From: a virus
Taxonomy: Duplodnaviria; Heunggongvirae; Uroviricota; Caudoviricetes
Direction: 5' to 3' (one strand)
Length of the DNA stretch: 23,785 nucleotides
IMG/VR virus record: IMGVR_UViG_2734482546_000011
The notes below the pieces were generated by a model. It saw only the letters and a program-made list of their open reading frames with translations. It was not told the DNA's origin and did no database searches. Position 1 is the first letter of the stretch. Each line of letters opens with the position of its first letter. Of this stretch, positions 1-5,317 are shown in pieces. The translations under genes and the position numbers were made by a program.

Positions 1-426
1 TTAGTGCGGAAATATTTGTGTAGTGTTCTGTATGTTCTCAGTAAAGAGTAATGAATTATCAAAGGTATAGTAATACCTTTTGTTTTCGTGGATATTTGTA
101 ATCCATCTGAAAACCCCTGCTGTAGCAAGATTTTTCCTGTATTCGTAAAATGATAACTCTCCTGATTTGAATCCTTTTAAGGTGGCTTCTATAAGGCATT
201 TATTTTTTGAAAATCTTACATTTACAACCTTACCCTGTCCTTTTATTAAAACCGTATTATCGTTTTCAAGAACAAGATGAATATTCTCTGTGGCTAAATA
301 GTAAATGTAATGTGAGACATTGTGACGTTTTAGTTCAGAATAAAACCAGTGATAGTTTAAATTATTTCGCACTTTATCGAATATTTGTTTAAAAATGGCA
401 ACCTGAGCCATTGTAGTACCTTCCAT
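1..426 (-). CDS. Hypothetical protein, 141 aa (136 aa if the second in-frame ATG at 409-411 is the true start); AT-rich accessory gene next to cos, function unknown
   Basis: Complete minus-strand ORF (start codon 424-426, stop TAA at 1-3). Visibly AT-rich compared with the structural genes. The second in-frame Met is preceded by a GAAGG Shine-Dalgarno-like sequence, whereas the first ATG has a C-rich upstream region. Same orientation as, and immediately downstream of, the 77-aa ORF. Position matches ybcV/ydfO-type genes in E. coli cryptic prophages, by synteny only. Confidence 0.6.
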
Positions 427-468
427 GTGATATGAGGGGGCGTAGTCTGCACGATTATCTAAATTGCT

Positions 469-702
469 TCAATCTGGTCTAACCTGTTTTCTGAGCAATT
501 CAGTAATGTCACTCTTTTCTTTGTTTGCTTCAGGCGAAACTCTTTTTTCTGAGCACAGTCTCCGGCGGCAGGCTTCAATGACCCAGGCTGAGAAATTCCC
601 GGACCCTTTTTGAACAAGAGCGATGTTAATTTGTTCAATCATTTGGTTAGGAAAGCGGATGTTGCGGGTTGTTGTTCTGCGGGTTCTGTTCTTCGTTGAC
701 AT
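469..702 (-). CDS. ylcI: YlcI/YnfO-like small basic protein (DUF3950-type), 77 aa; possible ribbon-helix-helix DNA binder
   Basis: Complete minus-strand ORF. The N-terminus MSTKNRTRRTTTRNIRFPNQMIEQINIAL...GSGNFSAWVIEACRRRL matches my recollection of E. coli DLP12 YlcI, which also sits beside a Nu1 homologue. Arg/Thr-rich basic N-terminal segment. No search was run. Confidence 0.6.
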   Translation of the reverse strand: MSTKNRTRRTTTRNIRFPNQMIEQINIALVQKGSGNFSAWVIEACRRRLCSEKRVSPEANKEKSDITELLRKQVRPD

Positions 703-859
703 GAGGTTGCCCTGTATTCAGTGTCGCTGATTTGTATTGTCTGAAGTTGTTTTTACGTTAAGTTGATGCAGATCAATTAATACGATACCTGCGTCATAAT
801 TGATTATTTGACGTGGTTTGATGGCGTAGATGCACGTTGTGACATGTAGATGATAATTA

Positions 860-1080
860 TTATCATTTTGCGGGTCCTTTCCGGCGATCCGACAGGTTAC
901 GGGGCGGAAGGCGCGCGGGTTTTCGCTATTTATGACAATTTTCCGGTTTAAGGCGTTTCCGTTCTTCTTCGCCGTAACCTAATGTTTTTATTTAAAACAC
1001 CCCCTGAAAAGAAAGGAAACGACAGGTGCTGAAAACGGGCTTTTTGGCCTCTGTCGTTTCCTTTCTCTGTTTTTGTCCGT
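860..1080. other. cos DNA-packaging site: cosQ-like region (about 860-890), cosN (902-913), cosB with Nu1-binding repeats R3 (about 951-970), R2 (about 1007-1025, inverted) and R1 (about 1051-1068)
   Basis: Flanking sequence closely matches the lambda right-end/left-end junction as I recall it (CCGACAGGTTACG | 12-mer | CGCGGGTTTTCGCTATTTATG...). The CGTTTCC(T)TTCT-type R elements lie directly upstream of nu1. Confidence 0.85.
902..913. other. cosN 12-nt cohesive-end segment, GGGCGGAAGGCG
   Basis: Located by alignment of conserved flanks with lambda cos. The first six bases match lambda GGGCGG; the last six differ (see findings). Confidence 0.6.
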
Positions 1081-1090
1081 GGAATGAACA

Positions 1091-1610
1091 ATGGAAGTCA
1101 ACAAAAAGCAGCTGGCTGACATTTTCGGTGCGAGTATCCGTACCATTCAGAACTGGCAGGAACAGGGAATGCCCGTTCTGCGAGGCGGTGGCAAGGGTAA
1201 TGAGGTGCTTTATGACTCTGCCGCCGTTATAAGATGGTATGCCGAAAGGGATGCTGAAATTGAGAACGAAAAGCTGCGCCGGGAAGTTGAAGAACTGCGG
1301 CAGGCCAGCGAGACAGATCTCCAGCCAGGGACTATTGAGTACGAACGCCATCGACTTACGCGTGCGCAGGCCGACGCACAGGAGCTGAAAAATGCCAGAG
1401 ACTCCGCTGAAGTGGTGGAAACCGCATTCTGTACTTTCGTGCTGTCGCGGATCGCAGGTGAAATTGCCAGTATTCTCGACGGGATCCCCCTGTCGGTGCA
1501 GCGGCGTTTTCCGGAACTGGAAAACCGACATGTTGATTTCCTGAAACGGGATATCATCAAAGCCATGAACAAAGCAGCCGCGCTGGATGAACTGATACCG
1601 GGGTTGCTGA

Positions 1611-1636
<26 letters not shown>
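1091..1636 (+). CDS. nu1: Terminase small subunit gpNu1, 181 aa
   Basis: Near-identical over its full length to lambda Nu1 as recalled (MEVNKKQLADIFGASIRTIQNWQEQGMPVLRGGGKGNEVLYDS...); N-terminal HTH; directly downstream of cosB. Confidence 0.97.

Positions 1637-5317
<3,681 letters not shown>

Follow-up and report, generated by a model that had tools for sequence, protein, structure and literature searches.

Two accessory genes of the ynfO/ydfO type to the left of cos in a lambda-like phage

The genes of the locus

The window analysed here is the whole 23,785-nucleotide (nt) stretch of the IMG/VR virus record IMGVR_UViG_2734482546_000011 (Caudoviricetes), which begins within a lambda-like prophage or phage. 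Our subject is its left end, where two minus-strand open reading frames (ORFs), placed at 469-702 and 1-426 in a preliminary description, are indeed present. The first (469-702, minus strand) is a DUF3950 gene, orthologous to ynfO, and its product of 77 amino acids (aa) has an Arg-rich N-terminus, a conserved core (residues 1-50) and a variable tail (residues 51-77). The second is a DUF1398 gene, orthologous to ydfO, ybcV and lambdap78, which occupies 1-411 of the minus strand from its annotated start (136 aa), while a 141-aa form would start at ATG 426. The locus is that of the named, uncharacterised ynfO/ydfO (ylcI/ybcV) genes of most E. coli lambda-like prophages and is, as such, already known; on the evidence gathered here, each of the two behaves as an accessory gene in its own right and not as one half of a toxin-antitoxin or defence module.

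ORFs of at least 136 codons with an ATG start did not occur in any of 2000 composition-preserving shuffles of 1-702, the longest having 130 codons. A 77-codon ORF arose by chance in 151 of the 2000 shuffles and is hence not unusual by length alone; we accept it as real because homology (the Pfam DUF3950 match) decides here, not length. As for the start of the DUF1398 gene, ATG 411 (M6 of the 141-aa reading) is used by RefSeq and in the K-12 annotation. Reading the sequence directly, we found a Shine-Dalgarno-like GAAGG at 419-423 (minus strand), 7 nt ahead of ATG 411, and no comparable site before ATG 426, so that ATG 411 appears to be the likelier start. The intergenic spacer is therefore 57 nt; the separation of 42 nt given previously holds only when counted from ATG 426. 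The stop codon of the DUF1398 ORF is formed by the first three bases of the window, and DNA further downstream lies outside its view.

Both ORFs scored above the cut-offs of the families with which a profile comparison had been proposed. The 77-aa protein belongs to Pfam DUF3950 (PF13132; 72.8 bits, cut-off 25, 2e-20), also matches NCBIfam YlcI_YnfO_N (NF041551; 35.2 bits, cut-off 30) and is identical to YnfO of the E. coli K-12 prophage Qin at 75 of 77 positions. The 141-aa protein belongs to Pfam DUF1398 (PF07166; YdfO/YbcV/YcgX), with 147 bits (cut-off 22, 3.3e-43) over profile positions 1-119 of 119, and shares 75% identity with K-12 Qin YdfO; its NCBIfam search gave only sub-threshold noise. 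It also matches the nuclear magnetic resonance structure of YdfO (PDB 2HH8) at 1.4e-69 and shares the fold of this solved member. In a single-sequence HMMER search against 1.84 billion cluster representatives, DUF1398 retrieved 189 clusters at E<=0.001, many of them with partial coverage.

The closest known counterpart is Qin ynfO (b4533)/ydfO (b1549), with which the locus shares its geometry: a divergent nohA/Nu1 gene at about 388 nt, ynfO of 234 bp, a gap of 57 nt, ydfO of 411 bp and a PdhR-type box at the 3' end of ynfO (PMC7660256 for the Qin site). Qin and 76 of 80 viral loci share with the window a Nu1-type gene that diverges from the 77-aa gene at a distance of about 389 nt. The locus differs from Qin in its DUF1398 allele, which shares 75% identity with K-12 YdfO and 99% with alleles that are widespread in other E. 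coli prophages, and in its setting, since Qin is a decayed prophage and the cassette of the window lies within an apparently complete packaging and structural region. The preliminary description had offered as an alternative that these might be conserved lambdoid right-arm genes, comparable to ylcI and ybcV/ydfO in DLP12 and Qin; given the families, the identities and the Qin geometry, this is correct.

Megablast with window positions 1-1100 matched 4480 of 5426 complete E. coli genomes (about 83%), 2636 of them over at least 80% of the length, together with 166 phage records. When genome contigs were scanned for DUF3950 across species, true matches were confined to Escherichia and Shigella, and the scan added no diversity for a deeper profile. 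Most of the non-Escherichia YlcI matches lay on contigs whose length, about 3.5 kb or 48.5 kb, is that of what looks like lambda control DNA; the labels of these contigs include Streptomyces, Pedobacter, Cohnella and Pseudomonas as well as various metagenome-assembled genomes. These matches look like contamination of public assemblies, not like the true distribution of the gene.

On its right-hand side the cassette is bounded by cos, immediately to the left of which it had been placed, correctly, by the preliminary description. Alignment with the annotated lambda DE3 cos and a regular-expression search of related loci put cosQ (GGGTCCT) at 872-878 and the 12-nt cohesive-end position of cosN at 902-913, both on the plus strand; 200 nt separate the cohesive-end position from ATG 702. 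The plus-strand genes for Nu1 (1091-1636) and gpA (1611-3536) follow, and their products differ from lambda Nu1 and lambda gpA at three and only four residues, respectively.

Two genes that occur apart

Comparison with lambda and DLP12 bears on whether the two genes form a unit. There, too, both families are found between bor/Rz and cos, on the strand opposite to the late genes. BLAST against lambda DE3 gave two aligned blocks of the window, 1-485 (82.8%) and 540-1100 (94.5%), which additional DNA separates in lambda DE3. The Qin-type-specific segment of the window (486-539) is replaced in lambda and DLP12 by an insert of about 613 bp, whose flanks are 83-94% identical to the window. Unlike in the window, this insert splits the two genes with lambdap79/ybcW, which lies on the other strand, and YlcI is a 64-aa form with a different tail; lambda YlcI diverges from residue 50 on. 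As an opposite-strand gene stands between them, ylcI and ybcV cannot be co-transcribed in lambda and DLP12, and ybcV needs its own promoter there. The lambda genome itself carries an intact 64-aa YlcI/DUF3950 ORF between lambdap79 and cos (lambda DE3 locus L002, 4068-4262, minus strand; approximately lambda 48109-48303), which is not annotated in the DE3 record NC_042057, and J02459 lists no features under the match.

Each family is also found without the other. In DUF3950 proteins the N-terminal 50 residues are nearly invariant and are followed by at least seven unrelated types of C-terminal tail. None of the representatives of three other tail types had DUF1398 downstream: two have a divergent HNH endonuclease gene at a distance of 41 nt and are followed by small ORFs and Rz1 or by a TonB_C gene, and the third has Nu1 as its neighbour on one side and, downstream, a convergent PerC gene. 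A fourth, more divergent DUF3950 member does have DUF1398, 101 nt downstream. Conversely, five out of five DUF1398 homologues that are only about 28-44% identical to the query, and hence distant, were solitary genes in ordinary chromosomal contexts with no DUF3950 neighbour, one of them a ycgX-like gene beside bluR/bluF.

Within the Qin type the association is nearly constant, since 79 of 80 viral contigs with a YnfO-type gene carry DUF1398 directly downstream; the scan with the 77-aa protein that supplied these contigs returned near-identical copies only and is usable for linkage counts, not for diversity. The exceptional contig (locus L049, 438-1454) has an IS5-type transposase gene directly downstream of an intact ynfO, in the position of DUF1398. 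This is the survivable direction of loss, and the locus is thus uninformative on a toxin-antitoxin reading. The conservation of the pair across lambdoid prophages, proposed earlier as a check, was thus seen for the Qin type; beyond it, the genes are split in lambda and DLP12, and DUF1398 is absent beside the representatives of three other DUF3950 tail types. Moreover, the same YnfO was found with two DUF1398 alleles about 75% identical to each other and therefore does not co-vary with its neighbour. Neither the obligate linkage nor the co-variation expected of a type II toxin-antitoxin system was observed.

Searches for defence functions likewise gave nothing above threshold. Among the defence models of PADLOC-DB 2.0, the 77-aa protein had no match and the 141-aa protein only a sub-threshold one to Csx23 (E=0.025, 12.6 bits); in Pfam, the latter matched beyond DUF1398 only HEPN_AbiA_CTD, at 15.8 bits and below the cut-off of 27. 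The DUF1398 fold has no relative among known toxins. From the literature, lambdap78 was scored as non-essential upon CRISPR interference knock-down (PMC10695390), lambda recombinants that had acquired ybcV::kan from DLP12 were active (PMC3945230), and a ybcV over-expression clone was given a glycogen phenotype score in a screen of the ASKA library (PMC2853380).

A mosaic junction inside ynfO

The preliminary description took the whole cassette to be AT-rich moron cargo. The GC content is 31.4% in the DUF1398 coding sequence, 36.9% in codons 51-77 of the DUF3950 gene, 48.7% in its codons 1-50 and 54.1% in the rest of the window; both claims accordingly apply to the DUF1398 gene and to the tail of the 77-aa gene, and not to codons 1-50, which are GC-normal, fixed in position and always present. 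For the DUF1398 gene, composition (31.4% vs 54.1% GC), orientation (minus strand) and variable presence are all those of a moron, and in other prophages PerC, TonB_C or small ORFs stand in its place.

GC content starts to fall not where the 77-aa gene begins but near a mosaic junction at about 540-552. The drop, the onset of the variable tails and the lambda/Qin breakpoint all coincide at about 486-552, that is, the junction lies inside the 3' part of ynfO, and this accounts for both the variable C-terminal tails and the local fall in GC. The conserved unit is YnfO residues 1-50, and the tail is a recombination scar. De Paepe et al. reported that cutting at cos promotes recombination on the left-hand side of the site and that this region is readily swapped between lambda and DLP12 (PMC3945230). 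We infer a recombination-prone boundary here: one of its arms would be made up of the conserved YnfO core and the cos-proximal DNA, and to its left, cargo such as DUF1398, ybcW, PerC and TonB_C would turn over. Escapers of lambda from the Vulcan defence system, for which lambdap79 is the reported trigger, arise by recombination with Qin, lose lambdap79 and are viable (bioRxiv 10.64898/2026.09.04.749371); in contrast to lambda, the window has no lambdap79.

The YnfO protein

Codons 1-50 of the DUF3950 gene differ between the window and the HNH-type copies at 26 of 150 nucleotides, with 17 synonymous against 4 non-synonymous codon changes, and the DNA upstream is unrelated. Judged by these codon changes, it is the YnfO protein, not merely its DNA, that is under strong purifying selection.

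The sequence of YnfO consists of a basic arm (MSTKNRTRRTTTR), a strand motif N-I-R-F-P, a helix, a K-G-S-G-N-F-S turn and a second helix. Such an arrangement recalls the Arc/Mnt-type ribbon-helix-helix (RHH) repressors of phage P22, which are likewise small, with a basic N-terminal arm, an N-[IL]-R-[FW]-P strand motif and two helices linked by a G-x-x-N-x-S turn. In Arc, N-L-R-W-P aligns with N-I-R-F-P of YnfO, and the turn N-G-R-S-V-N-S matches K-G-S-G-N-F-S; in the Arc-operator structure, N11 and R13 contact bases. The AlphaFold2 monomer model of YnfO has an extended N-terminus and helices at 19-32 and 34-53, with a predicted local distance difference test score of 72-87 over residues 11-50. 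Nevertheless, YnfO differs from Arc and Mnt in having no significant sequence or profile match to them and only weak structural matches, which leaves a resemblance. Foldseek of the model against the PDB returned noise only (E>5), a profile of 20 DUF3950 sequences had no match at E<=10 among PDB sequences, and a Pfam scan of three truncated DUF3950 cores (E<=10) gave DUF3950 only and no RHH family. With hhalign, the YnfO profile aligned to Arc at P=0.013 (22 columns) and to Mnt at P=0.19, in the correct register and without significance, the profiles being shallow (effective number of sequences, Neff, 1.6). Significant similarity to the RHH superfamily was therefore not found in tests whose power is low at this Neff. 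Of the earlier suggestion of a small YlcI/DUF3950 or RHH-type regulator, then, the DUF3950 part stands and the RHH part falls short of significance in profile searches. Considering the motifs and the model together, YnfO would most likely be an RHH dimer binding DNA.

Control, expression and structure of YdfO

A consensus scan pointed to a weak sigma-70-like promoter candidate of the DUF1398 gene at 454-481 on the minus strand (TAGACC, 16 nt, GATAAT; 9 of 12 matches). Relatives keep the candidate -10 hexamer, and in most of them the -35 hexamer is CAGACC. Overlapping the candidate -35, in the last codons of the DUF3950 gene, is a predicted PdhR-type box, ATCTGGTCTAACCTGTT (472-488), found as a sequence match; the 3-nt spacer is the sole difference between ATCTGGTCTAACCTGTT and the Qin site AAcaGGTcagACCAgaT (reverse strand). 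Genomic SELEX (systematic evolution of ligands by exponential enrichment) had located a PdhR site between ynfO and ydfO in Qin and an equivalent site between ybcV and ybcW in DLP12, and ybcV mRNA was 10-fold lower in a pdhR mutant (PMC7660256). The block alignable with lambda (1-485) has its end slightly upstream of the candidate -35, within the PdhR-type box, which suggests that the DUF1398 gene moves together with most of its control region. Downstream of the gene in the prophage of E. coli strain 582, the first terminator-like site on the minus strand lies at a distance of about 430 nt.

Expression data exist for the K-12 relatives. Ionic liquid induced ydfO of the cryptic prophage Qin 12-fold on arrays and 117-fold by quantitative PCR (PMC4077768), which shows host-dependent expression of ydfO. 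Over-production of T4 MotB, which perturbs H-NS silencing, raised ybcV and ybcW more than 1000-fold (PMC7827196); this result is suggestive only, because lambda DE3 genes also rose.

Structurally, YdfO is an internally duplicated alpha/beta platform without a structural relative of known function, and PDB 2HH8 is a solution structure from structural genomics to which no function was assigned. A role of YdfO in oxidative stress, namely greater resistance upon its over-expression, has been quoted (PMC4077768, citing Wang et al. 2010); we reject it, as the source (PMC3105296) reports YfdK, YfdO and YfdS of CPS-53 and never ydfO. The H2O2 phenotype of YdfO is a mix-up of its gene name with that of YfdO.

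Interpretation and alternatives

Taking these observations together, we consider it highly probable that the window carries a Qin-type ylcI/ybcV locus between the lysis genes and cos, made up of two independent accessory genes that are read against late transcription. Of these, ynfO encodes a small Arg-rich protein with strongly conserved first 50 residues, most likely an RHH dimer on DNA; leftward from the packaging module it is always the first gene, irrespective of what follows it. The ydfO gene is AT-rich, exchangeable cargo with its own putative upstream control region, including the predicted PdhR-type box; its product is dispensable for lytic growth, and we would guess at a binding rather than a catalytic role. 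Reshuffling at the ynfO 3' junction is probably aided by cos-stimulated exchange. Several points weigh against this interpretation. Neither protein has a demonstrated biochemical function. In the Qin-type arrangement (79 of 80 loci) the genes are co-oriented and 57-60 nt apart, and co-transcription is possible there. Finally, the promoter scan gave none for ynfO, and the candidate for ydfO is weak, having failed the same scan in the near-identical (99%) strain 582 prophage.

The preliminary description had likened the arrangement to type II toxin-antitoxin and abortive-infection modules. In such a module, YnfO would be an RHH antitoxin that represses its own synthesis and uses its C-terminal tail to neutralise a toxin of the DUF1398 family. 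Lambda and DLP12 part the two genes by a divergent gene and have a different YlcI tail, DUF3950 exists without DUF1398, and DUF1398 without DUF3950 in five of five distant cases. One YnfO sequence is combined with DUF1398 alleles of 75% identity and shows no co-variation, the HEPN_AbiA_CTD and Csx23 matches are far below threshold, the DUF1398 fold lacks relatives among known toxins, and the ASKA clone over-expressing ybcV could be scored in the glycogen screen (PMC2853380). With viable phages in addition (PMC3945230, PMC10695390), we find the module very improbable and do not uphold the comparison. Database labels suggest yet another function for DUF1398, that of a structural component: PHROG 413 is labelled 'head protein', and lambda records call lambdap78 a 'putative envelope protein'. 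This is almost certainly wrong, as the gene lies on the strand opposite to the late operon and outside the head gene block, lambdap78 is non-essential (PMC10695390) and ybcV::kan phages are viable (PMC3945230), homologues are found in non-phage chromosomal contexts, and the model is a soluble alpha/beta domain without a signal peptide or membrane segment. We reject both labels, which look like propagated guesses.

Two further possibilities concern YnfO/YlcI. It might be an accessory factor of packaging or late transcription, binding DNA close to cos or to where the terminase operon begins and modulating read-through or the use of cos, with DUF1398 as a passenger. The constant position of DUF3950 as the first leftward gene beside the packaging module (Nu1-type at about 389 nt, HNH-type at 41 nt) despite unrelated flanks would fit this, as would the strong purifying selection and the antisense orientation to the late transcript that lambda biology and the gene order imply. 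However, lambda grows normally in the laboratory without a known factor from the region, its own copy being unannotated; the Nu1-type and HNH-type upstream regions have no motif in common; the gene persists in cryptic Qin and DLP12, which no longer package DNA; and the fixed position may merely mirror linkage to a recombination-prone boundary (PMC3945230). We therefore regard such a factor as quite unlikely. A related scenario, also unlikely in our view although slightly less so, would make YnfO/YlcI a highly conserved RHH regulator of late read-through into the terminase genes or the adjacent cargo, and DUF1398 a PdhR-regulated host-interaction or anti-defence factor with a new fold; it draws on the fixed position, the purifying selection and the RHH-like motifs, and on nothing else specific. 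A single-gene lysogenic-conversion role of DUF1398, acting on the host or on other phages (stress tolerance, exclusion or anti-defence), has a small but real chance of being correct; it is compatible with two independent accessory genes and sharpens that interpretation. The gene is AT-rich and exchangeable, has bor as its neighbour in lambda and DLP12, which is where morons are classically found, and seems to be under host regulation via the PdhR site and ionic-liquid induction (PMC7660256, PMC4077768), while its neighbour lambdap79 is sensed by a defence system, so that the region touches immunity (bioRxiv 10.64898/2026.09.04.749371). On the other hand, it has no known phenotype, the quoted H2O2 phenotype being that of YfdO of CPS-53, and no PADLOC match.

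As a discovery, the locus of two independent accessory genes carries little weight, since these are named K-12 genes (ynfO/ydfO, paralogous to ylcI/ybcV) with one solved structure, and similar DNA is found in about 83% of complete E. coli genomes. Its residual value is that both belong to the y-ome, the genes without an assigned function. For later study, they should be treated as two separate genes, not as a toxin-antitoxin pair, keeping in mind that the only YdfO 'phenotype' quoted in the literature is the name confusion with YfdO.

The region between ynfO and Nu1

Positions 703-871 (minus strand) form the non-coding leader or promoter region of the DUF3950 gene, conserved in Nu1-type relatives and unrelated in the HNH type. 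An AGGG lies 7 nt ahead of the DUF3950 ATG. A sigma-70 consensus scan of 703-871 found no minus-strand promoter, and by eye there was no hexamer pair with acceptable spacing, in agreement with the earlier statement that no convincing -35 and -10 boxes could be placed in 703-800. A repeat search gave an inverted repeat, ATCAATTAATACG-N7-CGTCATAATTGAT, at 772-804, with 13-nt arms that are 85% complementary. This repeat might serve as an operator and is the sole candidate upstream of the DUF3950 gene, though a weak one because it is absent upstream of the HNH-type copies.

Just left of cosQ (region 839-866) there is a palindrome, GATGATAATTATTATCAT, at 849-866. It is overlapped by a promoter-like site on the plus strand, the best one in the region (GTGACA, 16 nt, TATCAT; 10 of 12 matches), which aims at cos and Nu1. 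We take the palindrome to resemble the Fur-box consensus, and lambda presumably carries a comparable sequence there.

Between cosN and the Nu1 start, the sequence CGTTTCC(G/T)TTCT is found in three copies (954-965, 1009-1021 and 1055-1066), one of them inverted, which by position we assume to correspond to the gpNu1-binding sites R3, R2 and R1 of lambda cosB. A 26-nt inverted repeat at 1010-1066 explains the terminator-like and miRNA-like chance matches of this part; Rfam on 1-1200 (E<=1) gave only such miRNA-like matches, on the cosB hairpin.

Finally, the cohesive ends of the window (902-913) read GGGCGGAAGGCG as against GGGCGGCGACCT in lambda, with six consecutive changes in the right half and identical flanks. 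This contrasts with the near identity of gpA and Nu1 to their lambda counterparts. Judging from base pairing, such variant ends would not anneal with lambda ends. Fourteen IMG/VR contigs contain the exact variant cos 34-mer, as does the prophage of E. coli strain 582, and the canonical 34-mer was found in at least 120 contigs.

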